DNA of 64,000 nt from Candidatus Latescibacterota bacterium (GCA_965116885.1 OZ220741.1:1920001-1984000), one strand, 5' to 3'. Positions 5,088 to 36,624 are shown, counted from the stretch's first letter. Numbers and translations are program-made. Notes: a model not told the origin generated them from the sequence alone.

Positions 5088-6539
5088 GTGTCTGGCATGA
5101 TGTGCATTCAGAAATGCGATATGCATCTTTTTCAAACTGAAGAACAAAAACAGCCGATTGTCTATCAAGTTGAGACGGGTCTGTTTTTTGAACTGGACAC
5201 CCTTTTCCAGGCGATTTTAGAGTGTTGTGAGGGTTTGTCTGTTGACCAGGTTGTTCAGGTGCTGGCCGATCAATACGAGGCAGAGGAAATTGCCGAGGCT
5301 ATTGAGGAATTGGCGCAGGTGGGTTTGATTTCGGATGGTGCATTGCCTGTGGTATCCAATGTGCCGACGACAGAAGGGGTGGCAGCCTGTGGGGTTTCGC
5401 AGACAGATCGTTTGCAGGTGTCCTTGCACGTTTCGCATACATGCAATATTCAGTGTGCTTATTGCTTTGCCCATGGCGGGGATTACGGCGGTAAGGCGAT
5501 GCTGATGCAACCGGACGTTGCCGAGCAAGCCATACGATGGATTGTCACCGAGGCTCAGGTGTTCGGACGGTGCCAGATTGATTTTTTTGGCGGGGAGCCG
5601 CTTTTGAACTTTCCATTGATGCAGGAGCTTGTCCCATTTGCCAAATCCCTGGGCGCGCGATTGGGTGTACAGGTTGGTTTTGGCATTGTGACCAATGGCA
5701 CGTTGTTGACCGACGAGATGAAGCAGTTTTTGGTCGATGAAAAGTTTCAGATTAAGGTCAGCCTGGATGGGGGGCGTAAGACACAGGATCGCATTCGCAA
5801 GTTTCACAATGGTTCTGGGACTTATGATGTTGTGGCAAAGAATGTGGAGAAACTGACTGCTGAGGCACCTGAGCGCGTGTATTTGCAGGCTGTTATGACA
5901 GCGTATGATATGGATGAGGATCAGATTGCCGATGCGTTGCGTTCATTGGGTACTGATAACGCGCTTGTTGGTCCGGCTGTCGTTTCACCGGATGCGCCCT
6001 ATGCGATTCGGGAAGAACACATACCCGTTTTGAAGCAACAAATTTACAAGCGAAGCCGACGTGCGCTCAAAGCCATTCTGAATGGTGAAGAGAGTGAAGA
6101 GTTTGATCCGAGAATTCAAAAACTTTTGACGCGTGAAAAATCTTGTCATGGATGCTTGGGTGGTAAGCAGTATCTGGCTGTTGCGGCAGATGGGTCGATT
6201 TATTTTTGTTCGAGTTTGGCCGATGCGCCCGAGTTTAAGATGGGTGATGTGTTTGCGGGTATTGATCGCGAAAAGCAGCAGCATTTTGACGCGCAGTTCA
6301 ATGTGAATAATCGGCCTGAGTGCAAGACGTGCTGGGCGCGCAACTTGTGTGGTGGTGGATGTCTTTGGGATGCGCGGACGACGACGGGTGATCCGATGTC
6401 TCCCAACCCTGTTGCTTGTGAACAGACGCGCTATCGCTATGAACTGGCGATGGAGATGTGTATGGAGATTGCAGAAACGGATGCGTCTTTGTTACAGCGA
6501 CGATATGATCTGGAAATGGCATCTGAATCGGAGAAGTAA
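5088..6539 (+). CDS. Radical SAM/SPASM-domain peptide maturase with N-terminal PqqD/RRE-like region
   Basis: CNIQCAYC motif, FFGGEPLLN, SPASM cysteines (CHGCLGG...C...CKTCWARNLCGGGC...C); ~90-aa N-terminal extension. Start could be ATG 5097 or 5100. Confidence 0.92.
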   Translation: MSGMMCIQKCDMHLFQTEEQKQPIVYQVETGLFFELDTLFQAILECCEGLSVDQVVQVLADQYEAEEIAEAIEELAQVGLISDGALPVVSNVPTTEGVAACGVSQTDRLQVSLHVSHTCNIQCAYCFAHGGDYGGKAMLMQPDVAEQAIRWIVTEAQVFGRCQIDFFGGEPLLNFPLMQELVPFAKSLGARLGVQVGFGIVTNGTLLTDEMKQFLVDEKFQIKVSLDGGRKTQDRIRKFHNGSGTYDVVAKNVEKLTAEAPERVYLQAVMTAYDMDEDQIADALRSLGTDNALVGPAVVSPDAPYAIREEHIPVLKQQIYKRSRRALKAILNGEESEEFDPRIQKLLTREKSCHGCLGGKQYLAVAADGSIYFCSSLADAPEFKMGDVFAGIDREKQQHFDAQFNVNNRPECKTCWARNLCGGGCLWDARTTTGDPMSPNPVACEQTRYRYELAMEMCMEIAETDASLLQRRYDLEMASESEK

Positions 6540-13326: not shown

Positions 13327-14007
13327 ATGGACAAGCAGCAAATTTTGATTGTAGATGATGAACCACTGGTAATATCAGAGCTTGTAGGATTTTTGAGAGA
13401 TGAACCTTATGAGATATTCACCGCGAGAAATGGGATAGAAGGTTTTGAAATTTTAAGAAAAGAGGAGATCGCCCTTGCCGTCGTCGAGATGAAGATAAAG
13501 GATATGGATGGAATAACGCTGTTGAAGCGTGTGAAGGAGGAGAAAATTCAAACGGTTATGCTGATCATGACAAGTTCGGGGAACATGGAATTGGGCGCGG
13601 AAGTGATCAAGGCTGGCGCAGTGAGTGTATTTGATAAACCGATAGAAAAAGATGTGTTTTTGGCGAAGGTCAAAAAATATATACCTCTGCAAGATATTTG
13701 GAAGACCTGGTTGGAATCATTTTTGGAGGCTAATTACAGCAATCCAAAGCTGAGATTTGAAGATGTCATGGGTCATTTCAGGTTCTCGGAAAGCTATGGA
13801 TATAAATTGTTTAAGAAGCACCTGGGAATGTCATTCCGGATGTGCCTTCGGAATGTACGCCTGACAAAGGCTGAGGAAGCGTTGAAGAACACATCATATA
13901 CCCTTTCAGAAATTGCTTGCCTGTGTGGGTTTGCATCTTTATCGACTTTTAGCAAGGTTTTCAAAGAGACGTATGGGGTTAGTCCGACCACATATCGAAA
14001 AAAGTAG
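13327..14007 (+). CDS. Response regulator with AraC-type HTH (atypical receiver)
   Basis: ILIVDDE receiver start, DKP; the usual phosphoacceptor position reads AVVEMK; C-terminal FKKHLG...EIACLCGFASLSTFSKVFKETYGVSPTTYRK. Confidence 0.92.
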   Translation: MDKQQILIVDDEPLVISELVGFLRDEPYEIFTARNGIEGFEILRKEEIALAVVEMKIKDMDGITLLKRVKEEKIQTVMLIMTSSGNMELGAEVIKAGAVSVFDKPIEKDVFLAKVKKYIPLQDIWKTWLESFLEANYSNPKLRFEDVMGHFRFSESYGYKLFKKHLGMSFRMCLRNVRLTKAEEALKNTSYTLSEIACLCGFASLSTFSKVFKETYGVSPTTYRKK

Positions 14008-14092
14008 CGACTGGAACAAATTTTTGCAGGTTAGGACAAACTTTCGGGCTTGGAACTTAAGAGCAATCAAATCATATTATCATCCACATCAC

Positions 14093-14143
14093 AAAAAAGC
14101 TGCCGACAGACCCTAACAGGTCGAGTGTCGGCGGTAAGCAGCA
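14093..14143 (+). repeat. Structured leader element, copy 1 (partial)
   Basis: AAAAAA-GCTGCCGACA-GACCCTAACAGGTC-GAG-TGTCGGCGGT; homologous to the other four copies. Confidence 0.85.
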
Positions 14144-14220
14144 TCTTGAGTTATAAGAGAACCCTTGCACATTCAAAAGATAGTGTTGATGAGAATAATC
14201 GGATCCGAGCGGATAACACA

Positions 14221-15567
14221 ATGGCTATAACAGAAAGAGAGCTTCTGGAAATTGCCGATTCCAGACAGATGCTGAAAGAAAAAATCGCATCGCACGAAGC
14301 GCGGATAGCGGTGATGGGATTGGGGTATGTGGGATTGCCTTTATCTGTGGCATTGGGCAAGGTGGGATTTTCCGTCACGGGAATCGATACATCGGCGCGC
14401 AAAGTAGATCTGGTGGAATCGGGAAAGTCCGATGTGCAGGGTGTATCGGAATTTGAAGTAGCAGGTCTCAAAGCTGTGGGAAAATTGACAGCAACGCGAG
14501 AATGCGATGTGCTCAATGAGGCCGATGTGATTGTGGTATGCGTGCCCACACCTTTAAATAAAACACGCGACCCGGATGTCTCGTTTATTTTGCAAGCATG
14601 TGGTGCAATCAAAGACCGACTGCGCTGCGGACAACTGGTGATTTTGGAGAGCACGACGTATCCAGGGACGACCCATGAACTGGTATTGCCCCTGCTCGAA
14701 GAAAGTGGCTTGAAAGTTGGTCGAGATTTTTTTCTGGTATTTTCTCCAGAGCGCGTCGATCCGGGCAATAAAGTTTATACCATCACCAATACGCCCAAAG
14801 TCGTGGGGGGTATTACCCCGTCTTGCACAGAAATAGGCACGCATTTTTACCGGCAATTGATCGGCGAAGTCGTACCGGTCTCATCAACCCAGGCTGCTGA
14901 AATGACCAAGTTGCTCGAAAATACTTTTCGCAGTGTAAATATCGGCCTGGTCAATGAAGTGGCACTGATGTGTGATCGCCTGAGGGTGGATGTTTGGGAA
15001 GTAATCGATGCCGCAGCGACCAAGCCGTTTGGGTTTATGCCGTTTTATCCCGGTCCTGGGTTGGGCGGGCATTGTATCCCGGTTGATCCGCACTTTCTGG
15101 CCTGGAAGCTCAAGACCTTGAATTACAATGCGCGCTTTATCGAATTGGCCAGTGAAGTCACGCGCAGTATGCCGGGCTATGTGGTCGAAAAAATCACCGA
15201 CGCACTCAACGAATACGAGCGGTGTTTGAAAGGCTCGAACATCCTGATATTGGGCGTGACGTATAAACCCGATGTGCGCGATATTCGCGAGTCGCCGGCA
15301 TTGGATATTATAGAAATGCTTCAGGAGAAAGGGGCGAAAGTCTCGTATTGCGATCCGTTTGTAGATCACTTGCAGACAGAAAATTTGGACTTGAAGAGTA
15401 CCTCTTTAAACAAAAAAAATATAACAGAAGCCCATTGTATGGTGATTGTGACGCATCACAGCGATTGGGATTATGAATGGGTCGTAAAGCACGCACGTTG
15501 TATTGTCGATACGCGCAATGCCACGCAGGCTGTATCTGGAAACAAAGATCACGTCTTTAAACTATAG
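14221..15567 (+). CDS. UDP-N-acetylhexosamine 6-dehydrogenase (WbpA/WecC family)
   Basis: GLGYVG, ESTTYPGTT, SPERVDPGN, KLLENTFR, GPGLGGHCIPVDP; start moved to ATG 14221. Confidence 0.93.
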   Translation: MAITERELLEIADSRQMLKEKIASHEARIAVMGLGYVGLPLSVALGKVGFSVTGIDTSARKVDLVESGKSDVQGVSEFEVAGLKAVGKLTATRECDVLNEADVIVVCVPTPLNKTRDPDVSFILQACGAIKDRLRCGQLVILESTTYPGTTHELVLPLLEESGLKVGRDFFLVFSPERVDPGNKVYTITNTPKVVGGITPSCTEIGTHFYRQLIGEVVPVSSTQAAEMTKLLENTFRSVNIGLVNEVALMCDRLRVDVWEVIDAAATKPFGFMPFYPGPGLGGHCIPVDPHFLAWKLKTLNYNARFIELASEVTRSMPGYVVEKITDALNEYERCLKGSNILILGVTYKPDVRDIRESPALDIIEMLQEKGAKVSYCDPFVDHLQTENLDLKSTSLNKKNITEAHCMVIVTHHSDWDYEWVVKHARCIVDTRNATQAVSGNKDHVFKL

Positions 15568-15625
15568 CATTACAAGATTGCGCTTCTCCAGTCCAATCCT
15601 CGACAGATCACCTGACTAATTTGGG

Positions 15626-16627
15626 ATGCTACCTTTGAAGATTCTATTTGATATTCTCCACGTTGCACATCTTAATTTTTTCAAGTCAGCCATCGAATCG
15701 TTGAAGGCCAGACACGATGTGTCGGCTGTTGTCAGGCAAAGAGGTAATCTTGTTGCCATAGCGGAGTCAGATCTCCCTTGTTCCTTTCGTGTAATGGGCG
15801 CTCATAGAACTGGTGTTAGAAAGATGGTTGGGGTATGGGAAAGGGTCGTTGATCTCAAGAAGATAGTATGCGAAATGGAGACAGATGTTTTGGCGAGTTG
15901 TGGATTCTATTCGGGCATAGTTTCGCGGTTTTGTCGCGTGCGGTCTGTGATTTTTTATGACGACTTCGAATACAAGCTAAATTTTTGGCCGTGTCTTTTA
16001 TTTGCTCATCAACTTGTCTTACCTGAAGCACTCGGAGCGGCAGGCAGAAACATCATTCAATACAAGGGGTTCAAAGAGTTGGCTTACTTGAACCGATTTG
16101 TCCCGCAACCGAAGATTTTAGGTGGGTATGGCGTTCAGCCAGGAGAGTATGTTTTCGTCAGGTATGTTGCACCTATCAGCATGAACTATCGACGCCTGGG
16201 TCAGAAAGAAGTTACGCAAGCGACCAATGCGATTTTAAATACTGGAATGATCATCATAGCCTCCCTTGAGCGGGGAATAAATCTCGAATTCGAACACCCC
16301 AATTTCCGAAAGGTTGTTGAACCTTGTCCCAGTATCCATTCCCTGATTTACTATTCAGCCCTGGTGGTAACTACTGGAGATACTGTTGCAAGGGAAGGCG
16401 CTCTCTTAGGAGTGCCTACTATCTATCTTGGAAGAAGGGAAATGCGCATAAATCGAGAATTAGTCGAGTGTGGACAATTAATAATCCCTGATCCTGGTGA
16501 GGCGACTAAAGAAATATTGGCAAATCTTAGCAATAGAGTTCCGCGAGTCAAACCTGAGAATAAAAAGTGGGAAGACACAACGGAGGTCATTGTCTCCTGT
16601 ATTGAGCAACAGAAATTCACAAAGTAG
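15626..16627 (+). CDS. DUF354-like GT-B fold protein
   Basis: FDILHVAHLNFFK N-terminus, YKGFKELAYL, TVAREGALLGVPTI. Confidence 0.75.
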   Translation: MLPLKILFDILHVAHLNFFKSAIESLKARHDVSAVVRQRGNLVAIAESDLPCSFRVMGAHRTGVRKMVGVWERVVDLKKIVCEMETDVLASCGFYSGIVSRFCRVRSVIFYDDFEYKLNFWPCLLFAHQLVLPEALGAAGRNIIQYKGFKELAYLNRFVPQPKILGGYGVQPGEYVFVRYVAPISMNYRRLGQKEVTQATNAILNTGMIIIASLERGINLEFEHPNFRKVVEPCPSIHSLIYYSALVVTTGDTVAREGALLGVPTIYLGRREMRINRELVECGQLIIPDPGEATKEILANLSNRVPRVKPENKKWEDTTEVIVSCIEQQKFTK

Positions 16628-16768
16628 TTTTGTCCGATATCAGATGATATTGGATTGTCCGGCAAATGGTAATTCAATCTGGTAAATATAGATTTGATGC
16701 GATGAAAATATTGGGATAATCAATCGGGATTAGGATTGATGTAGGTATATGGAAGGTAAGGGTGCAGG

Positions 16769-18139
16769 ATGAAAATTTGTGTGGTTGGTTTGGGCCATGT
16801 TGGCACTGTGAATATTGCCTACTTGCTTGAACGAGGTCATATCGTCACAGGCATGGATGTCTCCCAGGAGAGAATCCGCCATCTTTTTGCCGGTGAGCCT
16901 GAACCAGAACCCCGCGTAAGCGACCTGCTAAGTTCAGCACTTAGAAGTGGGAGGCTCCAGCTTTCGACTGACTACTTCAAAGCCGTTGAGGAGGCGAGTG
17001 TAGCGATCATCTGTGTAGGTACTCCGCGAGGTGAGAAAGACGGAATACCAAATCTGAGTTTTCTTTATCAGGCTGTAACGTCACTGGTTGAGATAGTCAA
17101 CAAGAAAAGAGGTACGTTTGACGTCGTTCTGCGCAGCACTGTTCCGCCCGGGACGACGCGTGATATCGTCTCTGGAGCCTTCGGGAATTTTGGCAATGTC
17201 TGGTATTACCCGGAGTTCTTGAGAGAAGGAAGCGCAATGGAGGACATGAATGATCCCCCGATTCGGATCGTTGGTGCTCCAAAGACTGGTTATTGTCAGC
17301 GCGTGTTAGATATTTACGGTGAGGCTGGGCCGGTGTACATTACCGAATACGAAATAGCTGAAATGGTAAAGTATGTATGCAATGCTTTTCATGCTATGAA
17401 GGTTACTTTCACGAATGAGATATCGAATATTTGTAGATATCTCGGGATAGACAGCAATAGAGTAATGGAAGTCGTGTGCTCAGACAACAAGCTCAATATG
17501 TCAAAAGCCTATATGAGGCCGGGATTCGCATTCGGAGGATCCTGTCTTCCAAAGGATCTTACAGCACTCCTGCGGCTATCGAACGGACGACAAGGACCTG
17601 AATTGCCTCTGCTGACCAATATCATCGTCAGTAATGATCTTCACATCAAGTCCACGGTCAGGAGGGTAAGGTCACTTGCCGTTCGAGGAACATTGGGTAT
17701 GTTGGGTTTGAGTTTTAAGCCCAATACAGGCGACTTGAGGGATAGTCCGTTCGTAAAACTCGGAAATATGCTCATCTCAGAAGGGTATCATGTGATCGCA
17801 TACGACCCGTCAGTGGAGTTGGGTTTCCTGGACGTAGAGCAGACTTATATTCAAAGCGATGCCAGAGAGATGTGGCAGGGACAATTGACCAGATCCCTCA
17901 ATTCGCTGTGTGAGTGTTCCCTGCTGTTGATCGCACATCCCATTTCCTCATTTCCTACACCGATTTTACCCATCTTGAAGGGCAAGCACGTTCTTGATTT
18001 GTGCAACGATCCTTTGCGAGAGCAAATCGCTGCTATTGCTGACTATGAAGGTGTGGGCTGGGAATGCCGTTCAGGATGTGTTCGGAATGTCAGCTTAGCA
18101 AAGGCTGAAGAAGCGTTAAAGAACACATCATATTCATAA
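16769..18139 (+). CDS. GDP-mannose/UDP-glucose 6-dehydrogenase family protein with chimeric C-terminus
   Basis: GLGHVG, RSTVPPGT, PEFLREG, GFAFGGSCLPKD; the last ~25 codons are homologous to the AraC gene. Confidence 0.92.
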   Translation: MKICVVGLGHVGTVNIAYLLERGHIVTGMDVSQERIRHLFAGEPEPEPRVSDLLSSALRSGRLQLSTDYFKAVEEASVAIICVGTPRGEKDGIPNLSFLYQAVTSLVEIVNKKRGTFDVVLRSTVPPGTTRDIVSGAFGNFGNVWYYPEFLREGSAMEDMNDPPIRIVGAPKTGYCQRVLDIYGEAGPVYITEYEIAEMVKYVCNAFHAMKVTFTNEISNICRYLGIDSNRVMEVVCSDNKLNMSKAYMRPGFAFGGSCLPKDLTALLRLSNGRQGPELPLLTNIIVSNDLHIKSTVRRVRSLAVRGTLGMLGLSFKPNTGDLRDSPFVKLGNMLISEGYHVIAYDPSVELGFLDVEQTYIQSDAREMWQGQLTRSLNSLCECSLLLIAHPISSFPTPILPILKGKHVLDLCNDPLREQIAAIADYEGVGWECRSGCVRNVSLAKAEEALKNTSYS

Positions 18140-18225
18140 AAAAGCCGCCGACAGACCCTGGCAAGTCGAATGTCGGCGGCAGACTGCAGTTCAAAGCTCA
18201 AGCATTTGGGAATGTGAGCTTGATG
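18140..18225 (+). repeat. Structured leader element, copy 2
   Basis: GCCGCCGACA-GACCCTGGCAAGTC-GAA-TGTCGGCGGC hairpin (18144-18180) plus AAGCTC-AA-GCATT-TGGG-AATGT-GAGCTT hairpin. Confidence 0.92.
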
Positions 18226-18248
18226 ATTTAAGATACCTCAGGTGCCCC

Positions 18249-19070
18249 ATGTACCAATCTCTAAAATCTCTCAACTATCTTCGAAAGAAGGTAGCGGTTA
18301 CAACATATAGACAATGGAGTAATCGGTGGCGATGTCTTCCAGACTATTTACTCATTGGCGCTCAAAAATCTGGAACTACGTCGCTGTACAAATATCTGGT
18401 TTCACACCCCGAAGTCCATCGGTGCTTGAAAAAGGAGGTTGGTTACTTTGACCAGCATATCAATAGGGGATTGGCGTGGTATCTTGCTCATTTCCCGATC
18501 AAGGGTTCTGCGGGATTTCAGCAAGTAACTGGCGAGGCAACGGCTGAATATTATTATTTGCCACAAGTGCCCCAAAGAGTACTCTCGGTTGTACCTCAGG
18601 CTAAGTTAATCATACTGTTAAGAAACCCCTTAGAAAGAGCACACTCTCATTATTGGCATCTTTTTAATACAGGCCGCGAGCGAAGACCTTTCGCGAAAGC
18701 AGTTGAAGACGAATTACGTCTTTTGAGCACCGATAGTCATCTCATGAAAATAGGATTCAGTGGCAGTCCTGGCTATGTTGCTCGGGGAATGTACTCCAGG
18801 CATTTGAAAAGGTGGTTAAGTTTGTTTCCGGAGCGTAATTTAAGAGTACTTATTTCAGAAGATTTTTTTTCCAAACCGGCTGTTGGTTACAACGAGATAA
18901 CAGATTTTCTGCAGGTGCGCAGACACCTGCCTGAGGCGTTCAAGGTTTACAACTCTGCAGCCTATAAGACACCCATGCCCAATCGCACAAGAGAGATGCT
19001 GATTGAGTTCTATCATGGCGTTAATATGGAACTGTCTAATTTGCTCGGACGCCGTGTCCCATGGCCATAG
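18249..19070 (+). CDS. PAPS-dependent sulfotransferase
   Basis: IGAQKSGTTSL 5'-PSB motif, LRNPLERAHSHY 3'-PB motif. Confidence 0.92.
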   Translation: MYQSLKSLNYLRKKVAVTTYRQWSNRWRCLPDYLLIGAQKSGTTSLYKYLVSHPEVHRCLKKEVGYFDQHINRGLAWYLAHFPIKGSAGFQQVTGEATAEYYYLPQVPQRVLSVVPQAKLIILLRNPLERAHSHYWHLFNTGRERRPFAKAVEDELRLLSTDSHLMKIGFSGSPGYVARGMYSRHLKRWLSLFPERNLRVLISEDFFSKPAVGYNEITDFLQVRRHLPEAFKVYNSAAYKTPMPNRTREMLIEFYHGVNMELSNLLGRRVPWP

Positions 19071-19159
19071 TGAGTATGTCTTAAAAGGCTCGCGGCTTGT
19101 GTTCACGATTACACATTTGGTGGATAACGAGAAATTGAAGAGGTAAGCGTGCTATCATG

Positions 19160-19246
19160 AAAAAGCCGCCGACAGACCCTGGCAAGTCGAGTGTCGGCGG
19201 CAGACTGCAGTTCAAAGCTCAAGCATTTGGGAATGCGAGCTTAATG
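19160..19246 (+). repeat. Structured leader element, copy 3
   Basis: Near-identical to copy 2; first hairpin 19165-19201. Confidence 0.92.
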
Positions 19247-19304
19247 GTAAGATAGCTTTTGGTGGGTAGGTTGTCAACTATCGTGTAACTGGATATAAAA
19301 ATTT

Positions 19305-19598
19305 ATGAAGAAAAACACAGTAACAATATCTGAGATTGAGAATCAGATTCAAGGTTTGGTTCTGAAGGCATTAGACTGTGAAGCCTTATCTGATGATATA
19401 GATTGGGACAATCTTCCTCTGGCTTCTATACTCGATTCTATTTCCACTCTGGCCCTGGTGACAGGCTTAGAGGATGCATTTGATGTAATCGTAGAAGACG
19501 AAGAACTCACAGAAGAGATGCTGACTTCGACACGTTCGGTAGCACAGTATATATATGAGAAATTAACCACTGATACACATTCACTTGTTCCCGAATAG
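19305..19598 (+). CDS. Acyl carrier protein
   Basis: Acidic 97-aa protein with LDSISTLALVTGLEDAFDV; the phosphopantetheine Ser is retained. Confidence 0.85.
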   Translation: MKKNTVTISEIENQIQGLVLKALDCEALSDDIDWDNLPLASILDSISTLALVTGLEDAFDVIVEDEELTEEMLTSTRSVAQYIYEKLTTDTHSLVPE

Positions 19599-19636
19599 AT
19601 CAATACCATGAACTAAACACTGCGAGAGGTTTTTTG

Positions 19637-21541
19637 ATGGAGTATTTTTTTTCTGGGTTGACAGGTACAGGAACACGCGTAGGCGTCATTGATAGCGGTT
19701 TTAATGCAGGAAAAAAAAACGTGCATGTGTTGAATGGCACCAGTTTCTGTAATGGCGATTCCCAACCAGATTCAAAGTATAAAGATATGATAGGCCACGG
19801 CACAGCAGGTATTGGCGTCATCCACTCTAAAGCTCCCAATGCTGAATTTTTGCCTGTCAAAATTTTTGAGTCAGAGCTGATAGCGACAATGGATATTTTG
19901 TGCAAGGCGATTTACTGGTGTGTTGAACATCACTGTCACATTATCAATTTGAGTTTAGGCACTCTGGATGAGAGTAATAGCGATATTTTGAAGAATGCCT
20001 GTGATTTTGCACACAAACACCAGACGTTCATTGTTGCTGCGACATCAAATGATGGACAACCGAGTATTCCCGCGTCTTTTCCCAATGTCTTTGGCGTAGC
20101 AGGGGGAAAAGTTAATGGAAAATTTGATTACTTTTATGATCCGCACGAAAAAATACAATTTGTCGCGCGGGGTGATCGTCAACGCTTGGATTGGCTGGGA
20201 GGCAAACAGATATTTATGGGCGGGTCGAGCTTCGCGGCTCCGCATATTTCTGGCTTGATTGCTCTGATCATAGAGAAATATAATGGCATAACTTTCAACG
20301 ATCTGATAGAAATTTTGCAGAAACATTCCTTAACTCAATGTCCCAAGCTGGTAGATAGTAGCACTTATGCGATGAGCGAGATGCCCAGGTCCCGCTCAGA
20401 CGTTTCTATCCGCGATCTCAATAAGGCAAACACGCCAGGCTGGATAGAAGAGGCTGTTATTTTTCCATATAACAAAGAAATGCATGGATTGGTGCGGTTT
20501 CGGGAGTTATTGCCATTTAGACTTACAAGGGTAGTTGACGTTATTGGTAAAAGAACCATAGGCAAAGATTGTGGAAAGGTTATTGGTGGGTCCGAATCTA
20601 ATTTGATCATACAACAAAATTTGGAAGACTGCCTGCAATACGGCGATACGCTCGTTTTGGGTTATTTGGATGAAATTAGCCGGATTAAGAAACGCGATGT
20701 GTTACAAGAATCTCTGGAATTGGCATTGAAGCATAACAAGAATGTTTATAGTCTGAGTCCCATTGCAAATAAGCAATACGAAAGCATAAGCAAAGCATTT
20801 GAAGAAAAACATCTGTATTATGCAGCACCAACCATAGATTTTGCAACTTATGAGGTTTTGACCAAAACTTATGATTGGAGAAGCAGAAGCCAGAAACCTG
20901 TCGTGGGCATATTTGGGACAGGACCGCAGCAAGGCAAGTTCACTGCACAATTGGCACTGAGAAAACAATTACAAAAAATTGGCTATAAAGTTGGTCAATT
21001 GGGTACAGAACATCAATCTGCGTTATTTGATTTCGATTTTACATTTCCAAATGGATATGATGGGCATCAGAGCATCCAAATTCCCATGGATTTGCACATT
21101 CCACTTCTAAATTCCGCTATGGTCGGTATCGAACAATTAGACCCGGATATCATCGTTGTTGGCGGTCAGTCCGGTATTATACCTCATAACTTTTACGAAA
21201 AATCTCAGAGTTATACTTTGCCCTCATTGATCTTGCTTTTTGGAACCGTTCCCGATGCTTATGTCCTGCTCGTTAATTCTATCGACGAGCCTGAATTTAT
21301 ACAAGAAAATATCCGAGTATTAGAGAGCCTGGGAAAAGGAAAAGTGATTCTGCTTGTTTTTAGTGATAAGAAAAAAATTGTTAATAACACTGTTAATACA
21401 GTCGTCAACCAGCCGCTTTGTAGAGAGGAAATTTGTCAAACGATATTGACTTTGGAATCAACGCATTGCATTCCTGCGACTGAGATAATTAGCGCAGAAG
21501 GACAAAAAAAGATGGCCGATGTTGTTGTTGATTTTTTCTGA
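19637..21541 (+). CDS. S8 (subtilisin-like) peptidase fused to a DUF1611-like P-loop domain
   Basis: Catalytic triad motifs VIDSG, GHGT, GSSFAAPHISG; C-terminal half has GIFGTGPQQGKFTAQL, GTE and IIVVGGQSG; no signal peptide. Confidence 0.85.
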   Translation: MEYFFSGLTGTGTRVGVIDSGFNAGKKNVHVLNGTSFCNGDSQPDSKYKDMIGHGTAGIGVIHSKAPNAEFLPVKIFESELIATMDILCKAIYWCVEHHCHIINLSLGTLDESNSDILKNACDFAHKHQTFIVAATSNDGQPSIPASFPNVFGVAGGKVNGKFDYFYDPHEKIQFVARGDRQRLDWLGGKQIFMGGSSFAAPHISGLIALIIEKYNGITFNDLIEILQKHSLTQCPKLVDSSTYAMSEMPRSRSDVSIRDLNKANTPGWIEEAVIFPYNKEMHGLVRFRELLPFRLTRVVDVIGKRTIGKDCGKVIGGSESNLIIQQNLEDCLQYGDTLVLGYLDEISRIKKRDVLQESLELALKHNKNVYSLSPIANKQYESISKAFEEKHLYYAAPTIDFATYEVLTKTYDWRSRSQKPVVGIFGTGPQQGKFTAQLALRKQLQKIGYKVGQLGTEHQSALFDFDFTFPNGYDGHQSIQIPMDLHIPLLNSAMVGIEQLDPDIIVVGGQSGIIPHNFYEKSQSYTLPSLILLFGTVPDAYVLLVNSIDEPEFIQENIRVLESLGKGKVILLVFSDKKKIVNNTVNTVVNQPLCREEICQTILTLESTHCIPATEIISAEGQKKMADVVVDFF

Positions 21542-21572
21542 GATCAAGACCTCAAGGATAGGGAGAAAGTAA

Positions 21573-22295
21573 ATGCAAGAAATTCGGAAAATGTCGCTGA
21601 TTTTGAATATCCTGTTATCTGTTTTTCTTATGGTTGCGTTATTTGGGATATGGAAGTTGAAAAATACGAACGCTCGTCGTTGGGAGGAAATCAGAGAGCT
21701 TCGAAAAGAGAATGCAGATTATAAGGAGCACATAAATACTTCTACTTATGCATCCAATTTTCAAGGACAGGAATTTCCGAAGTTGCAATTGAAAAACATA
21801 AATGGCGATTGGATTTCAACAGACTTTTCTAAAACAGGAAAAGGATTGGTTCTGGTCTTCAAGCCGCGAGACTGTCAGCCTTGTCTAATCACCCAGATAA
21901 AGTTATTGGAGCATGTGTACCAAAATCAAGATCCCTCAAAACGCTTTCCAATTTATGCTTTTGCCAATGCTACTCCAGAAGTATTGAAAAAATTTAAAAA
22001 GAGTTTTGATCTCCATTACGAGTTGCTTCCGGATACTGAGAACAAGTTATTCGAAAATCAATTACTTACCCGTCGTACCCCTGCTATCTTTGTTGTGAAC
22101 AAACAAAATATTATAACGCATTGTCATTTGCCCTCAAAGGACCGCCCTCAAAATACAGTCCTCTTTTTTGGTGTGATTCAAAGACATTTGCCTTTGCAAA
22201 AACCACTTCTGAACGATCATCTTGAAGGAGTAACCTATTCTCAAATTATTGCCAAAGATTTTGATATTGATCCTTTATCTACATTGATGTATTGA
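21573..22295 (+). CDS. Membrane-anchored redoxin (TlpA/AhpC-like thioredoxin fold)
   Basis: N-terminal TM helix, GQEFPKLQLKNING, CQPC, TPAIFVVN. Confidence 0.75.
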   Translation: MQEIRKMSLILNILLSVFLMVALFGIWKLKNTNARRWEEIRELRKENADYKEHINTSTYASNFQGQEFPKLQLKNINGDWISTDFSKTGKGLVLVFKPRDCQPCLITQIKLLEHVYQNQDPSKRFPIYAFANATPEVLKKFKKSFDLHYELLPDTENKLFENQLLTRRTPAIFVVNKQNIITHCHLPSKDRPQNTVLFFGVIQRHLPLQKPLLNDHLEGVTYSQIIAKDFDIDPLSTLMY

Positions 22296-22339
22296 TATTT
22301 ACGAACAAGATGTGGCAGGGCAAAAAGATTGATATAAAT

Positions 22340-22422
22340 AGCCGCTGACAGGCCCTGGTGAGTCGAGTGTCGGTGGTAGGGCGCAACAGCAGTTCAAAGT
22401 CCAAGCATTTGAGAATATGAGC
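22340..22422 (+). repeat. Structured leader element, copy 4
   Basis: GCCGCTGACA-GGCCCTGGTGAGTC-GAG-TGTCGGTGGT (22341-22377) plus GCAGTTCAAAG...CAAGCATTTG segment. Confidence 0.88.
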
Positions 22423-22522
22423 ATGAGAGCCTGATTTTACTTGAAGCCCATCAAGTAAAGAGTCGCTTATACGCACGCAGGTCCATGCAGAATATGACTC
22501 AAAAAGTAAAGGAGGTGATACT

Positions 22523-22738
22523 ATGAAAGCATTGACCAAGCCGAAGAAGTTTCAGGCTATGTCTCGTATCTATGGATACGAGTTAGAATGGGATGTGGAC
22601 CCCCCGGCTGTCTGTGTCACAACAGGAAGTATCAATGTTAACGACGAGGATCCAGATAATCCTAAAGAGGAGATATACGTGTGCGAGGGTACGTGTGAAC
22701 CGTATTACGATTGCGACGTCGACAGCGACTGTGAATGA
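22523..22738 (+). CDS. Cys/acid-rich precursor peptide A (71 aa)
   Basis: Strong AAAGGAGGTGA RBS; leader MKALTKPKKFQAMSRIYGYEL shared with peptide B; core has 5 Cys. Confidence 0.88.
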   Translation: MKALTKPKKFQAMSRIYGYELEWDVDPPAVCVTTGSINVNDEDPDNPKEEIYVCEGTCEPYYDCDVDSDCE

Positions 22739-22823
22739 CCTCAATTATCAATGCCGGCTCATTTTGGTGTGAAGAGGTATTCGATTGCAACGAATGCTGA
22801 TCCGTGGCTGTCGTTTAAAAAGC

Positions 22824-22910
22824 GAGCTTGATGGGCTTCAAGTTTGGATCGGTGTTCTCGGTAAACAGGCTTGGAACACCGATCCAACGATAAATAATAA
22901 GGATTATCAT
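22824..22910 (+). repeat. Conserved 3' structured element after precursor A
   Basis: GCTTGA-TGGGCT-TCAAGT hairpin, then a 14-bp stem TTGGATCGGTGTTC/GAACACCGATCCAA; paralogous to 27321-27407. Confidence 0.88.
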
Positions 22911-22912
22911 TA

Positions 22913-24019
22913 ATGAAGAAAAAAAAATTATTGGTTTCAGTGGAGTGGCTAACACTCCTCTTTCTCATCCTTGGAGGTTGCGAAAAGAGTGCGGTTGAAA
23001 ACCAGAAAGCGGTTGAAAATCAGAAAGATGCAATCGTTCTCGATACGCAAACACAAGGAACCCATCTCTCATTGGTTGGTGATATCACGCTGGAGCTCCC
23101 AGAGGCTGGCCCCGCACTCGGTAGGGTAGGTTCTGTGACGATTGCGGAGGACTATATCATAATTTTAGATAACCTGAGAAAAAGTGTTGAAGTTTTTGAC
23201 AGAGAGGGAAACTACAAGTGGCCTATTGGCAGTCGGGGGGACGGAGTAGGCCAGTACAAGATACCGAGCGGGTCTGCTATTATACCCAATACCGACCAAA
23301 TACTGATCTACGATGGAGGTCCCATAAAAATTCTTCGTTTCTCACTCAAAGGTGAATTTATAGGGCGGGTAAGGCTATCTGAGAGACGCGCCATTAATCG
23401 TATGGTGGTTTCTGAAGGTCACAATTTCATTCATACTTATGTTGATAGAAACAGAAACGGTATGCTTTGTGTAACTTCTCTGGACACAGGTGAAGACCTC
23501 GCTAAGTTCAAAGTCTGCGAGCCTGAATATAGACGCCTATTTTTTGCTTTTAAGCGTTTTCAAGGGCTTGCTTATGACGAAGCGCGAAAAATCATATACT
23601 TTGTCCTACCGTGGGGTGGTGAGGTTGTGCGGATTGATTTGGCAACGCAGGAGTTTCTCCCTTCTCTAACTATAAATCATCCCAAATTTATCAGTCTTAA
23701 ATTAGAAGAGGACAAAACTGCAAAAAAATTATTAAAAACTAAGTTTAGTAGATTGTACGGCATGTCTCTTCTGTCTTCGGGAGATGTTTTACTCAGGTAC
23801 CTGTTCAGGGATTCATCAAACAGTACTGCGTTTATACTTTTTTCTGACCTGAGCGTGGAGCCTTATGCCCAAGAGATGAAAAATGAACTGAGATACAATA
23901 GTTTCACTTCTCAGGGGATGTCTATATATGAGTATTTATCGCCTGCCGATGACGAGGATACGAATGGTAAGATTCGTATCTATCGTCTTATCGATACTCC
24001 TGAATCCCCTACCGGCTAA
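22913..24019 (+). CDS. Beta-propeller (NHL/TolB-like) lipoprotein
   Basis: Lipobox-like LILGGC after a basic/hydrophobic N-terminus; VFDREGNYKWPIGSRGDGVGQY repeat pattern; AVENQK tandem duplication at 22991-23026. Confidence 0.75.
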   Translation: MKKKKLLVSVEWLTLLFLILGGCEKSAVENQKAVENQKDAIVLDTQTQGTHLSLVGDITLELPEAGPALGRVGSVTIAEDYIIILDNLRKSVEVFDREGNYKWPIGSRGDGVGQYKIPSGSAIIPNTDQILIYDGGPIKILRFSLKGEFIGRVRLSERRAINRMVVSEGHNFIHTYVDRNRNGMLCVTSLDTGEDLAKFKVCEPEYRRLFFAFKRFQGLAYDEARKIIYFVLPWGGEVVRIDLATQEFLPSLTINHPKFISLKLEEDKTAKKLLKTKFSRLYGMSLLSSGDVLLRYLFRDSSNSTAFILFSDLSVEPYAQEMKNELRYNSFTSQGMSIYEYLSPADDEDTNGKIRIYRLIDTPESPTG

Positions 24020-24120
24020 TAGCGAAAGTCAACTCGTTGAGCATCTCTATCATCACTATTTTCAATGATTAATCCGACGACATTTTTCACGGGTATTCTT
24101 CGTTTATATCACGGGTGAAT

Positions 24121-25890
24121 ATGAAGGACAAACAACAAGTCATATCAGCTATTTCCAATATCTCTAAGCAGAGACACGTCTTTTATCATTTTTTGAAATT
24201 TCTAAGACCGTATTGGATACACGAAAGCATTGTTTTCGTCCTCATGATTTTAGGGACCGTTAGCTCGCTGGCCTTTCCCTATATCATGAAAATTATTATT
24301 GATGACGTGTTTCCAAACAAAGATTATGAACTCTTGATATTTATTTTGCTTCTGCTCCTGGGCATTACAGTAGGCAATATCATTATTAGTTTTTGTTCAA
24401 ACTATTTATTTGCCTGGATAAAAAATCGCGTTATGCTGGATATAAGAAGCCATCTTTTTGACCACTTAATCCAGTTGCCATTGAGCTTTTATGATCGCAA
24501 TAAATCTGGGGATATTGTTTATAGAATGAGCAACGAAGTTGATAGAATACAGTCGTTTATCACTTCAAGTGCTTTGAGTCTTGTACATAGCTTGCTGACA
24601 CTCATAGGGCTTACTGTGGCTCTCTGCTGGTTGAACTGGCAGCTATTTTTGGTTTCTATTATTGTAATACCTTTTCTGGCACTCAATATTCGCTACTTCC
24701 AGCCCAAGATAAGAGATATTACGGAACGAGGACGAAAGAAAGGCTCTGAAGTTATGAGCTATTTGATTGAGCGATTTGAGACTGTCCAATTGATTCAGGT
24801 CTATAATGCCTATCATTACGAAAACAATAGATTGTGGTCGCAGCTAAATGATCTCCTGAGTATCAATATGCAAAATGTAACCTGCTCTGGAGCTATGAGG
24901 TCCATTTCGAGATTTTTAACGTCATTGACGCCTGCAATCATTCTGGGATGGGGAGGGCATAAGGTGATGTTGGGGGTTATGAGCCTGGGGGCATTGGTTG
25001 CTTTTTTGCAATACCTGTCGCGCCTTTTTGCACCATTTAGAAATCTCAACCGCCTTTATATCGCCCTCATCCGTGTATCTGTTTCAATGAAACGAGTATT
25101 CGAATTTCTCGAGATTGATGTTCAGAAAATAACAGATGGGTCTGCCGCCAGTCCGTTTTCTTTTCAAAAGGAGATTGCGTTCACCAACCTCAATTTTGGA
25201 TATAATGGACAACCCGTTTTGCAGGACTTCAGTTTAAGACTGGAGAAAGGAAAAAAATATGCTCTGGTGGGGTCAAGTGGTTGTGGCAAGAGTTCATTAG
25301 TAAATGTACTGTGTCGTTTTTATGACTTGAATACAGGTGTGATTACTATTGACCATACACCGATTACCGATATCAAGCTGTATGATCTGAGAGAGCATAT
25401 TGGTCTGGTAACCCAGGAGAATCAAGTTTTTCATGATACAATCTGGAATAATATCCGATACAGCAAGCTGGAAAGTACGCCTGAAGAAATCAATCGAGCG
25501 ATCAGCATAGCTGGTTTGAATGAATTTATTGAGAGGGCTGAAGATGGTGCGCTTACGCTTATCGGTGACCGAGGTAACACACTGTCGGCTGGACAAAGGC
25601 AGCGTATTGCTATTGCGCGTGCAATTTTGAGAGACTCGGATATTCTGATCCTGGATGAAGCTACGTCGGCACTGGATTCTGAAAGCGAAGGTGAAATTAT
25701 AGCAAATTTACAGGATCTATATGAAAATAAGACGATGATTGTGATTAGCCACAGACTCAGCACGATCCAGCAGGTAGATGAGATTATTTGCTTGGATGAG
25801 GGGAGAGTTGTGGAGCAAGGAGCACATGAGGAGTTGATGGAGAAGAAGGGGTATTATTGGCGTCTTTTTCGCAAGCAACTTATCGCATAG
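24121..25890 (+). CDS. ABC exporter, fused permease and ATPase (no C39 peptidase domain)
   Basis: TM domain, then GSSGCGKS, LSAGQRQR, ILDEATSALD, ISHRLST. Confidence 0.95.
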   Translation: MKDKQQVISAISNISKQRHVFYHFLKFLRPYWIHESIVFVLMILGTVSSLAFPYIMKIIIDDVFPNKDYELLIFILLLLLGITVGNIIISFCSNYLFAWIKNRVMLDIRSHLFDHLIQLPLSFYDRNKSGDIVYRMSNEVDRIQSFITSSALSLVHSLLTLIGLTVALCWLNWQLFLVSIIVIPFLALNIRYFQPKIRDITERGRKKGSEVMSYLIERFETVQLIQVYNAYHYENNRLWSQLNDLLSINMQNVTCSGAMRSISRFLTSLTPAIILGWGGHKVMLGVMSLGALVAFLQYLSRLFAPFRNLNRLYIALIRVSVSMKRVFEFLEIDVQKITDGSAASPFSFQKEIAFTNLNFGYNGQPVLQDFSLRLEKGKKYALVGSSGCGKSSLVNVLCRFYDLNTGVITIDHTPITDIKLYDLREHIGLVTQENQVFHDTIWNNIRYSKLESTPEEINRAISIAGLNEFIERAEDGALTLIGDRGNTLSAGQRQRIAIARAILRDSDILILDEATSALDSESEGEIIANLQDLYENKTMIVISHRLSTIQQVDEIICLDEGRVVEQGAHEELMEKKGYYWRLFRKQLIA

Positions 25891-25893
25891 GGA

Positions 25894-26403
25894 ATGGAAC
25901 TGGTGAGTTTAGAATTTCGCAATCCTGACATAAAATTAATTCTCCTGCGTGTATTGGTCATCCAAGTTTTGGGAATAGGCACAGGATTGATTTATACTGT
26001 TATTTTTAGTGAACAGCTTTTGTTCGGCGAGGTTGAAACCTCTGAAAAACAAGATGATATAACGTATGTCTCTTTAGAAGTTCTTCAAAATATAATTCAT
26101 TCGAAATCAAAAATATTACTCATCGATGGGCGTTCTGAATCTGCTTATCACAGAGGCCATATTCCAGGGGCTGTGAACATACCGTATATTCAGCGCGATT
26201 ATTTTTTTCGTCAGCTTTTGGCTGATGTTGCTCGTGAGACCCTAATAATTGTCTATTGTTCTGGCAAGAATTGTAATATCAGTGTCAAATTGGCGAGGTC
26301 TCTATCAGGGGAATTTGGATTTATACATGTTCGAGTTTTTGAGGGAGGATGGGAGGAATGGGTAAAGGGAAAAAATCCGATCCAAACGAGTTTTGACAGA
26401 TGA
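25894..26403 (+). CDS. Rhodanese-like domain protein
   Basis: IDGRS...GHIPGAVNIP, IVYCSGKNC, EGGWEEW. Confidence 0.9.
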   Translation: MELVSLEFRNPDIKLILLRVLVIQVLGIGTGLIYTVIFSEQLLFGEVETSEKQDDITYVSLEVLQNIIHSKSKILLIDGRSESAYHRGHIPGAVNIPYIQRDYFFRQLLADVARETLIIVYCSGKNCNISVKLARSLSGEFGFIHVRVFEGGWEEWVKGKNPIQTSFDR

Positions 26404-26867
26404 TTATACCTGCTAAATTAGCCTGGACAGGAACCGTAGTCCGGATATTTCTGGGACTTATTCTCGGATGGGCCGGGGTTGTAAAAATCCGTAATCCGAA
26501 AGCATTTATTGAAATTGTTAAAGCCTACAATTTGCTACCTGAGGAATTGGTCGTGCTATGGGGGATCTTCTTGCCCTGGATTGAGCTTGTGACAGGTTTA
26601 TTTTTATTTCTCGGTTTGTGGCACAGGAGTGCCGTGCTCAGTTGTTCTGGTCTCTTTTTTGTATTTGCAGCAGCCGTAGGCATTAATATTCTCCGGGGGG
26701 CAGATATCGCCTGTGGTTGTTTTGGGTTCAATGACACCAATTTGTATGTTGTGTTGTTCCAGGACCTGGTTTTCTTGCTTTGCTGTTATTTTTTGGTTTT
26801 TCTAAAATCTACACCTTATTCTCTGGACCATTGCTTTTCTACTTCTCAAAGTGGTGGACTTTCGTAA
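26400..26867 (+). CDS. MauE/DoxX-family membrane protein
   Basis: RIFLGLI...LPWIEL...GADIACGCFG. Confidence 0.88.
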   Translation: MIIPAKLAWTGTVVRIFLGLILGWAGVVKIRNPKAFIEIVKAYNLLPEELVVLWGIFLPWIELVTGLFLFLGLWHRSAVLSCSGLFFVFAAAVGINILRGADIACGCFGFNDTNLYVVLFQDLVFLLCCYFLVFLKSTPYSLDHCFSTSQSGGLS

Positions 26868-26880
26868 AGTATTCCCTGGC

Positions 26881-26979
26881 AAAAGCCGCCGACAGACCCT
26901 GGCGAGTCGAGTGTCGGTGGTAGCCCCCAGGGGTAGGTTGTAGTAGCAGTTCAAAGCGCAAGCATTTGGGAATGTGAGC
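26881..26979 (+). repeat. Structured leader element, copy 5
   Basis: GCCGCCGACA-GACCCTGGCGAGTC-GAG-TGTCGGTGGT (26885-26921), a short insertion, then the second conserved segment. Confidence 0.9.
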
Positions 26980-27083
26980 GTGAGAGCATGCATGGTTTTA
27001 CTTGAAGCCCATCAAGTAAGGTGCCTCTTATATGCACGCATATTCATGCAGGATATGACTGAAAAAGTAAAGGAGGTGATACT

Positions 27084-27284
27084 ATGAAAGCTTTGACCAA
27101 GCCGGAGAAGTTTCGATCTATGTCTCGTATCTATGGATATGAGCTACCAGATGATATAATAGGATATCAATGTGAATTTCAAGGCTATACCGATATTGTC
27201 GTAGATGGTGTGGTCGTTGGTCAAACGGAAGATTGGGACTGCGTGAGTGTAGTTGATGAGATATTCGATTGCGACGGCTGCTAA
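27084..27284 (+). CDS. Cys/acid-rich precursor peptide B (66 aa)
   Basis: Same RBS and leader (MKALTKPEKFRSMSRIYGYEL) as peptide A; core has 4 Cys and ends DCDGC. Confidence 0.88.
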   Translation: MKALTKPEKFRSMSRIYGYELPDDIIGYQCEFQGYTDIVVDGVVVGQTEDWDCVSVVDEIFDCDGC

Positions 27285-27320
27285 TCCGTGGCTCTCGTTG
27301 AAAAACTAAGGTGTGCTACT

Positions 27321-36177: not shown

Positions 36178-36514
36178 AAAAGTCACCGTAGCTCCGAGAA
36201 AAATCTTAAGATAGGGGTGGAAGTAGTATAAACCCTAACCTTGGAGGCTACGATAACTCACCCCAAAGATATTAAGATTTTTGCACCAGAGCAATTTGCA
36301 CTTTTAAATGATCCTGATTTTCTCAATCAGGCCATAACCCGCTTCCTGCAGCAGTTCCTCGACGCGGAGATCACGTCGTTTTTACAAGCAGAACCCTATC
36401 AAAGAACAGGCGACCGTACGGGCTATCGTAACGGATGTAAACCCCGTTTTGAAATAAACTCTCTGACCCCTATTTCACGGGGCTACATTTTTACAGAACT
36501 TTTTGGACTTGACC
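36147..36514 (+). mobile_element. Internally deleted IS256-family element (MITE-like) with imperfect terminal inverted repeats
   Basis: Left end GATAGCGTCCTTAAATTTCTGTAAAAA and right end TTTTTACAGAACTTTTTGGACTTGACC (20/27 inverted match); flanking CTTTTTT direct repeat; encloses a transposase N-terminal fragment. Confidence 0.8.
36241..36450 (+). pseudogene. IS256-family transposase N-terminal fragment
   Basis: LQQFLDAEITSFLQAEPYQRTGDRTGYRNG is typical of IS256 transposase N-termini; no DDE domain follows. Confidence 0.85.
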
Positions 36515-36624
36515 CTTTTTTTCAAAAGAGAATTCTTTTTAAGAGCTAAGTTATCCCTAAATTAAAAATTTTGTTATCAGTTCTAAGACTAAATGCTACA
36601 TTCCATCTTTTTGGAGAAACTGTC

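Follow-up and report, generated by a model that had tools for sequence, protein, structure and literature searches.

A stretch of 64,000 nucleotides (nt) from Candidatus Latescibacterota bacterium (GCA_965116885.1 OZ220741.1:1920001-1984000; hereafter the window, in which positions are counted from the first letter) carries five copies of a hairpin element, c1 to c5, in a cluster of glycan and peptide genes. An earlier note on this DNA had described them as structured leaders of plus-strand transcripts. Read on the minus strand, the third copy is very probably an intact small-RNA gene, predicted from its sequence to have its own promoter and intrinsic terminator. The best explanation of the element as a whole, and on balance a probable one, is a genus-specific family of antisense small-RNA genes accompanied by copies that would act as pairing sites.

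A predicted small-RNA gene on the minus strand

As read on the plus strand, a copy consists of an A-run, a first hairpin (hairpin 1) and, in c2 to c5, a second hairpin called module 2. Because hairpin 1 has an A-run before it and no U-run after it on the plus strand, it is on the minus strand that it has the shape of an intrinsic terminator, a GC-rich hairpin with TTTTT(T) behind it. At c3, the predicted terminator comprises a GC-rich 10-bp stem and an inner stem (-23.7 kcal/mol) followed by 5-6 T, and is preceded in the minus-strand RNA by a 5' hairpin, which is the mirror of module 2, and by a short, single-stranded linker that begins UUUGAACUG. The minus-strand RNA of c3 folds into two hairpins (-34.7 kcal/mol), and the same two-hairpin architecture is found in the consensus structure of its closest relatives (type B, defined below), computed from a set that includes c2. 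Upstream lies a candidate promoter, TTGACA and TATCTT separated by 17 nt, from whose -10 box the transcription start was inferred (Table 1). This promoter is listed at 10 of 12 matches in a scan of 13900-27300; a simple scan for terminators overlooked hairpin 1 owing to its internal loop. At c3, the strand assigned in the earlier note was thus not upheld: a candidate promoter and a putative terminator are found on the minus strand, of whose predicted gene the described element is the mirror.

The predicted gene has two features of a cis-encoded antisense small RNA, namely a putative promoter of its own that points against the flanking genes and a 3' end defined by a putative intrinsic terminator. 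Overlap of the small RNA with a sense transcript is likely, being favoured by the gap between co-directional genes in which c3 lies, and the terminator scan returned no plus-strand terminator in this gap. Sigma-54 promoter readings of the loop (TGGCA...), of module 2 and of the boxes upstream of c4 and c5 were judged by eye and rejected, the GG-GC spacing being unfit.

The comparison with other genomes was based on a family defined by BLAST and by two covariance models, R1 and R2, built separately after a joint structural model of types A and B had been dropped because the aligner misplaced the two kinds of 5' hairpin. Type A comprises copies beside paralogous regulator genes (13 analysed, from 9 genomes). 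Type B is the copy immediately before a carrier-protein gene, that is, c3 and its orthologues in genomes G002, G005, G006, G011, G013 and G017, and also takes in the copy after the regulator gene in G020, which is without the peptide cluster. Type C contains 15 copies ahead of precursor, ABC transporter, DUF218 or glycosyltransferase genes, including c4 and c5, and a hairpin-only type contains c1 and a single G003 copy. An exact TTGACA-N17-TAnnTT, on the T-run strand and 38-56 nt ahead of the hairpin, is present in 13/13 type A and 8/8 type B copies; the 5.56-Mb genome, both strands counted, has this pattern 226 times, or at ~2e-5 per position. Of the 17 type C and hairpin-only copies, none has a -35 box of at least 5/6 matches plus TAnnnT within 230 nt.

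Conservation among the 8 type B orthologues follows the parts of the predicted gene. Invariant columns make up 6/6 of the -35 box, 5/6 of the -10 box, 27/28 of the 5' hairpin, 37/38 of the terminator and 5/5 of the T-run, and 7/17 of the promoter spacer, 5/19 of the linker, and 1/6 and 0/4 of the flanks. The pattern is that expected of a promoter and an RNA gene on the minus strand.

The protein gene always paired with this predicted small-RNA family is a REC-AraC response regulator. Five type A copies lie in this genome just upstream of paralogous regulators; four of these neighbours were scanned, three having REC and an AraC helix-turn-helix (HTH) domain and one the AraC HTH only, and the fifth is similar by eye. 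Between two type A small-RNA genes and the genes downstream of them (L039 ~1290-1320, which is G000 C1 ~1759060, and the equivalent in L041), we also observed sigma-54-type boxes (TTGGCAT/C-ACAT-N-TTGCA) with GTGAACA-N3-TGTTCAC palindromes upstream, so that some paralogous regulators may use an enhancer-dependent promoter.

The search for known families and for relatives bears out the remark that the element was not recognisable. Rfam 15 gave no match at gathering score in the 64-kb window; for 13900-27200 at E up to 10 it gave 4 weak matches (17-22 bits against cut-offs of 38-54), none of them on a copy, and for four type A loci at E up to 1 it gave none. This 5.56-Mb genome contains 10 members, the five in the window, as the proposed tie to the glycan and peptide cluster would have it, and five beside REC-AraC paralogues. 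With so few members, and with all cluster copies in one orientation, dispersal in the manner of a REP was not found, and a REP-, BIME- or MITE-like repeat was rejected. BLAST found matches in 13/20 genomes of the same genus and 0/40 outside it; R1, with stricter filters, found members in 16/19 genus genomes and 0/131 other genomes sampled from the phylum. Moreover, neither R1 nor R2 detected the element at 11 loci with distant homologues of the peptide cluster (Cytophagia, KSB1, Bacillota and another Latescibacterota genus). Across these samples, the predicted small-RNA family is restricted to one genus, and the element belongs to the genus and not to the cluster type. Two contigs binned elsewhere, L055 (VXYV01000024.1, Gammaproteobacteria) and L056 (JAAXHO010000070.1, Poribacteria), carry an S8-DUF1611 gene at 90-91% identity together with the element (116 and 49 bits with R2); they are probably mis-binned Latescibacterota contigs from sponge metagenomes, or else reflect a recent transfer.

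Table 1. Positions, in the window, of the element copies, their predicted parts and the adjoining genes
Feature	Position	Strand	Remarks
c3, predicted small RNA	19160..19242	-	~83-87 nt; start near 19242, end 19160-19164
c3, small-RNA 5' hairpin (module 2 of the earlier note)	19242-19215	-	
c3, small-RNA linker	19214-19202	-	UUUGAACUGCAGUCU
c3, small-RNA terminator hairpin (hairpin 1 of the earlier note)	19201-19165	-	
c3, small-RNA T-run	19164-19160	-	UUUUU in RNA
c3, candidate -35 box	19277-19272	-	TTGACA
c3, candidate -10 box	19254-19249	-	TATCTT, after a 17-nt spacer
c1	14093-14135	+	A-run and hairpin 1 only
c2, element as first read	18138-18219	+	
c3, element as first read	19160-19240	+	
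c4	22336-22422	+	hairpin 1 22341-22377; 11-nt variable linker; module 2 22390-22422
c4, linker	22378-22389		
c5	26881-26979	+	hairpin 1 26885-26921; 25-nt variable linker; module 2 26947-26979
c5, linker	26922-26946		
c2, as small-RNA duplicate	18138..18257	-	T-run 18138-18143; terminator hairpin 18144-18180; 5' hairpin; -10 TATCTT 18230-18235
c2, -35 position	18252-18257	-	TTGGTA, 16-nt spacer; hexamer coincides with the sulfotransferase start codon
c4, candidate sense-strand extended -10 promoter	22330..22338	+	TGATATAAA; ends 2 nt before the c4 stem
REC and AraC-type HTH response regulator gene	13327..14007	+	Pfam Response_reg, HTH_18, HTH_AraC
c1 gap	14007 to 14221		REC-AraC stop to UDP-sugar dehydrogenase ATG
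c2 gap	18139 to 18249		ends at the sulfotransferase start
c3 gap	19070 to 19305		downstream gene carrier-protein-like
c4 gap	22295 to 22523		ends at the precursor A start
c5 gap	26867 to 27084		ends at the precursor B start

Promoter-less copies and the strand that pairs

The five copies themselves were located where the earlier note had placed them, and each is intergenic and lies before a plus-strand gene, as claimed. A 13-mer from the 5' arm, with up to 2 mismatches, has 8 matches in the window against 1.09 expected, a number that 0/100 shuffles reach. Five of the matches are the plus-strand copies (14099, 18144, 19165, 22341 and 26885), two are the opposite arms of c2 and c3 on the minus strand, and one, at 5363, is unrelated. 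An 18-mer from module 2, with up to 3 mismatches, has 3 matches against 0.11 expected; module 2 of c4, which is more diverged, was recovered by alignment and a looser scan.

The four remaining copies differ in how much of the predicted gene they retain. The second, c2, scores 117 bits with R2, has 10/10 Watson-Crick pairs in its stem and is homologous to type B up to 4 nt past the -10 box; by these features it is a recent duplicate of the predicted small-RNA gene, with a damaged -35 box. The first, c1, has no minus-strand promoter within 230 nt and corresponds to a remnant of the predicted small-RNA terminator that comes after the REC-AraC gene in relatives. For c4 and c5, no minus-strand promoter with a -35 box of at least 5/6 matches lies within 230 nt, and none appears in the scan of 13900-27300. 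As judged from the sequence, c1, c4 and c5 cannot produce RNA from any recognisable promoter.

In type C copies, hairpin 1, module 2 and the linker complement CAGTTCAAAG are retained across species, and the linker between hairpin 1 and module 2 is hypervariable, from ~11 to ~95 nt across copies. That the modules are retained while the linker varies argues that the promoter-less copies are non-neutral. The same linker is a hot spot for insertions (also in the L043, L045 and L046 copies), some of which are GC-rich and self-complementary (for example G002_c, G017_b and G017_c).

The earlier note had reported G-U pairs that form in plus-strand RNA only. In the window this applies to c1, c4 and c5, whose 10-pair stems contain 2, 3 and 2 G-U pairs on the plus strand and none on the minus strand, with one further plus-strand wobble in the inner stem of c4; among relatives it weakens to a bias. 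The type C main stem (150 cells) has 115 Watson-Crick pairs, 21 plus-strand wobbles, 9 minus-strand wobbles and 5 non-pairs. In promoter-bearing copies, G-U pairs exist in the small-RNA orientation only. The type B main stem is Watson-Crick in 80/80 cells, with two U-G pairs in the inner stem, and a T>C change in module 2 that is private to c3 pairs as G-U in minus-strand RNA, where the plus strand has C-A. The type A main stem has 120 Watson-Crick and 10 wobble cells, all 10 on the T-run strand; the type A consensus contains U-G or G-U at four more positions in 9-12/13 sequences and one C-G to U-A compensatory change in 2/13 sequences.

These data also bear on the proposal that the plus-strand RNA is the functional unit, a structured leader or intercistronic element before each transcription unit that serves as a processing site, a 5' or 3' stabiliser or a protein-binding site and coordinates the glycan and peptide genes, the minus-strand promoter of c3 being secondary. 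We consider this explanation unlikely. It accords with the position of the copies, which lie in gene orientation and at operon junctions in all genomes, and with hairpin 1 being predicted in the plus-strand folds of 5/5 window copies (z-scores -2.4, -2.3, -0.7, -3.2 and -2.5). Three compensatory changes (G005_b, G011_b and G011_d) speak for it as well; however, the covariation is at shuffle level, since in hairpin 1 of the 17 promoter-less copies 3 pairs are changed on both sides and 226/500 shuffles equal this. The check for covariation that had been proposed, run on these promoter-less copies, was therefore negative. Counted as distinct changes relative to type B, stem changes lean towards transitions that plus-strand pairing tolerates (C>T, A>G), with 11 against 6 opposite transitions and 4 transversions (33 against 14 by cells). 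A milder excess of C>T and A>G exists outside the stems too (5 against 4, with 4 transversions, in the rest of the hairpin; 8 against 6, with 10 transversions, in module 2), so that part of it may come from mutational bias on the coding strand. In sum, the plus-strand signal is a modest bias that is enriched in stems. Some selection on a hairpin of the plus-strand RNA could produce it, as could, in part, a C>T mutation bias of the coding strand. Against the proposal also stand the 9 minus-only wobble cells and 5 non-pairs of the relatives, and the module 2 hairpin of the promoter-less copies, which shows no compensation and is instead nearly fixed in sequence. Finally, it leaves unexplained the T-run and the invariant TTGACA and TATCTT on either side of a variable spacer.

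The c4-type copies carry a further plus-strand feature, a conserved extended -10 box that abuts them and that favours the plus-strand explanation, except that a promoter there would start inside the 5' arm and remove part of the stem. The box was read by eye in orthologous copies as TGATATAAT (G002_b), TGATATAAA (G013_b), TGATGTAAA (G011_b) and TAATATAAA (G006_b); at c4 it is putative, inferred by eye and not returned by the promoter scan. A sense-strand extended -10 box, TGCTATCAT, is also seen at c3 (19150-19158), where it ends exactly 6 nt before the stem. The A-run may thus be where sense transcripts begin, adjoining the small-RNA terminator back to back.

A plus-strand attenuator, riboswitch or antitermination leader was rejected on the grounds that no U-run follows hairpin 1 on the plus strand and that covariation is not significant. 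Near the copies, the plus strand has a single terminator-like site, a stem of 5 pairs at 26978-26991, and the scan yields 7 sites against 10.8 in shuffles. The view of a cis-acting RNA that coordinates the cluster is hence retained as regards action at the RNA level, and given up as regards the strand of the functional gene, which is probably the opposite one; a leader function of c4 and c5 on the plus strand may exist.

Several observations weigh against the small-RNA explanation. The promoter scan returned 26 sites in total against 27.3 in shuffles, which is chance level; the c3 match in the window alone is accordingly weak, and its weight rests on the comparison with other genomes. Promoters were judged by the sigma-70 consensus, whose use in Latescibacterota is an assumption. 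Of the type A copies, 8/13 also carry a good sense-strand promoter abutting the A-run (TATCAT, TATTAT or TATAAT with TTGAAA or TTGCAA at 18 nt, the box likewise ending 6 nt before the stem), and at type A copies both strands are probably transcribed. The c4 hairpin folds at -15.9 kcal/mol on the plus strand and at only -7.2 on the minus strand, where its tail, TATTTATA, is a poor U-run. In the 17 promoter-less hairpins, the plus strand pairs in 92.3% of the stem cells and the minus strand in 82.7%, with neither strand above the shuffle control (134/500 shuffles equal the plus-strand value). This excess, together with the poor minus-strand hairpin of c4, suggests some selection on the plus-strand RNA itself, in place of or in addition to selection for complementarity. 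In addition, the changes outside the stems have no clear bias towards those that retain pairing with the small RNA (5 against 4 in the hairpin and 8 against 6 in module 2), a count that neither supports nor refutes action in trans. Lastly, the candidate pairing sites lie 100-200 nt upstream of start codons, which makes a direct block of translation unlikely.

Gene order and the origin of the copies

According to gene-order maps, all 7 genomes of the genus that have the peptide cluster contain one intact predicted gene, located without exception ahead of the carrier-protein gene; they also have 1-3 promoter-less copies each, at conserved junctions and in a single orientation. The recurring promoter-less junctions are after a redoxin-like gene (c4 orthologues in G002, G013 and G011), before an ABC transporter gene and after a MauE-like gene (copies at the c5 junction in G002, G006, G013, G005 and G011). 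In G002, G011 and G020, the intact small-RNA gene comes immediately after the regulator gene. The spacer downstream of the regulator and the c1 hairpin align with these three genomes, and in the window three sugar genes come next; the homology of c1 breaks off where the stem ends on its 3' side, and so does that of the G003 copy. G017 and G006 have a second UDP-glucose dehydrogenase gene, then a single intact copy, then the carrier-protein gene. In the window, c2 keeps the left flank of this arrangement and c3 the right flank, with the sulfotransferase gene between them, and the stretch duplicated in c2 and c3 runs over ~95 nt from the A-run to 4 nt past the -10 box. A single crossover, between the element on the chromosome and the element on a circular cassette, would leave this layout. 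Copies would then have arisen through cassette insertion by recombination at the element, and the suggestion in the earlier note that the element may serve as a recombination substrate fits the synteny, as c1, c2 and c3 flank inserted sugar and sulfotransferase cassettes.

The same arrangement, with the sulfotransferase cassette between two ~95-nt element copies, could mean that the promoter-less copies (c1, c4, c5 and the body of c2) are neutral scars of duplication and cassette insertion, the element providing homology for recombination only. Stems and T-runs are in fact decaying, with the T-run interrupted in 8/15 type C copies and 5 non-pair cells in the stem. In G017 (L044), the copies at 8609 and 4188, one before a precursor gene and the other before an ABC transporter gene, have identical hairpins and a near-identical upstream flank of 50 nt, which indicates a recent duplication of several kb within the cluster. 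However, copies persist at the same junctions in 5-7 species, and hairpin 1 and module 2 are ~80-95% conserved around a linker that cannot be aligned, unlike neutral decay. Neutral scars are, in our judgement, a quite improbable explanation.

Very unlikely, in turn, is a purely DNA-level element, in which REC-AraC regulators would use the inverted repeat GCCGCCGACA-N17-TGTCGGCGGC or module 2 as an operator, or a site-specific recombinase would capture cassettes at it in the manner of attC. A REC-AraC gene always adjoins (5/5 type A copies in this genome and the regulator beside type B), the loop, like a specificity determinant, varies in sequence between paralogues but not within the cluster family, and the copies bound variable cassettes in one orientation. 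The strand-asymmetric G-U pairs and compensatory stem changes nevertheless point to pairing in RNA, and sites of the AraC family are usually direct repeats beside a -35 box, not a 10-bp palindrome in a transcribed region. No integrase or recombinase is encoded among the 30 open reading frames scanned, which cover 7.6-41.7 kb of the window; the only related find is a Mutator-family transposase fragment. Integron attC sites were rejected for this reason, within the part of the genome scanned, and because attC-type core motifs are not evident in the sequence; the sole likeness to attC is that copies bound cassettes. The transposase fragment (36241-36546, 102 aa, profile positions 18-67 of 379) lies within the glycosyltransferase part of the cluster.

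Other neighbours of the copies were characterised in part. The carrier-protein-like gene after c3 has only sub-threshold ACP matches. The precursor-like genes A and B (22523-22738 and 27084-27284) encode a common 21-residue N-terminal leader, MKALTKP-KF--MSRIYGYEL, and unrelated acidic, Cys-containing cores, and neither peptide has a Pfam or NCBIfam match. Both genes are preceded by a strong Shine-Dalgarno box, AAAGGAGGTGATACTATG. Beside them, an S8 protease-DUF1611 fusion has a sub-cut-off match to TIGR04066 (peptide maturation system). The leaders of precursor and ABC transporter genes contain a third conserved hairpin, TTTTACTTGA-loop-TCAAGTAAAG, which lies 3' of module 2 (22435-22465 and 27000-27030 in the window, and in relatives).

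Proposed action and relation to known small RNAs

The c3 small RNA would be fully complementary to any plus-strand transcript that crosses 19160-19242 and would pair there in cis. Because the other copies retain the sequence of the small RNA, pairing in trans is proposed as well, at c2, c4 and c5 and, over hairpin 1, at c1. The predicted gains in pairing energy are -34 (c1), -105 (c2), -69 (c4) and -76 kcal/mol (c5), compared with -5.5 +/- 2.4 for 148 random windows; these values follow from the homology and are not independent evidence. Pairing would alter the processing or stability of segments of the cluster mRNA, as GadY and scr4677 do for their operons, and the act of transcribing the small RNA may in addition hinder read-through towards the carrier-protein operon. 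The REC-AraC regulator that accompanies every family member would be tied to the action of the small RNA. Retained modules around a hypervariable linker fit a multi-target RNA whose sequence is frozen, and we infer from the retained sequence that it would act on the copies in trans. We put forward only tentatively that the promoter-less copies function as pairing sites and are neither scars nor plus-strand elements in their own right.

Parts of this arrangement have counterparts elsewhere. GadY of Escherichia coli is a cis-encoded antisense small RNA in the gadX-gadW intergenic region. The predicted c3 RNA resembles it in being short, in having its own promoter and terminator, and in lying opposite a gap between co-directional genes with complementarity to the read-through mRNA, and by analogy action through duplex-directed processing would be expected. 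GadY differs in that it is not known to have additional promoter-less self-copies in other leaders of a cluster; its sequence is unrelated, and the RNA described here is a prediction from sequence. The Qrr small RNAs beside luxO in Vibrio have sigma-54 promoters and act in trans by short seeds with Hfq. They share with the present family a multicopy nature, a common architecture (5' hairpin, linker and terminator) and a member that adjoins a response-regulator gene. The differences are that the promoters here look sigma-70-type, that each paralogue lies beside a regulator of its own and that the candidate targets are long, near-complete copies of the gene.

According to the report on scr4677 of Streptomyces coelicolor, this conserved small RNA of ~70 nt is intergenic within an operon, has a link to the regulator next to it and influences how much of the operon transcripts is present (PMC3896431). 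As far as that account goes, the likeness is that of a small RNA in an operon gap linked to an adjacent regulator. The difference is that scr4677 appears there as a single copy from another phylum and sequence family, whereas the Latescibacterota element occurs 2-5 times per cluster and has a REC-AraC response regulator as its partner. SraG of E. coli is described as a small-RNA gene between rpsO and pnp that runs opposite to these co-directional genes (PMC5029454). By that description it is like c3 in lying between two co-directional coding regions with the reverse direction of transcription, and unlike it in being a single copy of unrelated sequence in another type of operon.

A full-text literature search for 'Latescibacter' with 'small RNA' found no paper on regulatory RNAs of Latescibacterota. 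The family would thus be an undescribed, genus-restricted small-RNA family of known architecture, its unusual trait being the promoter-less self-copies in the leaders of the cluster and at cassette borders.

Latescibacterota are uncultured, and the genomes considered here appear to be sponge-associated. For these bacteria, the family provides a concrete candidate small-RNA gene with a clear predicted promoter and terminator, a fixed REC-AraC partner and a natural set of candidate targets in a peptide natural-product cluster. For annotation, the lesson is that repeated leader hairpins with an A-run ahead of them should first be read on the other strand. We can imagine, as a doubtful but consequential extension, that one antisense small RNA, paired with an AraC-type regulator, coordinates the whole cluster through self-copies in the leaders that double as homology arms and capture cassettes already wired in. 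If this were true, the captured cassettes would be the sugar dehydrogenases, the sulfotransferase and the extra precursors, and a system both regulatory and recombinational would have come from an RNA gene. If the copies are real pairing sites, the cluster would have been brought under one RNA regulator by copying the sequence of that regulator into each leader, and the same repeats would show how cassettes move in and out.

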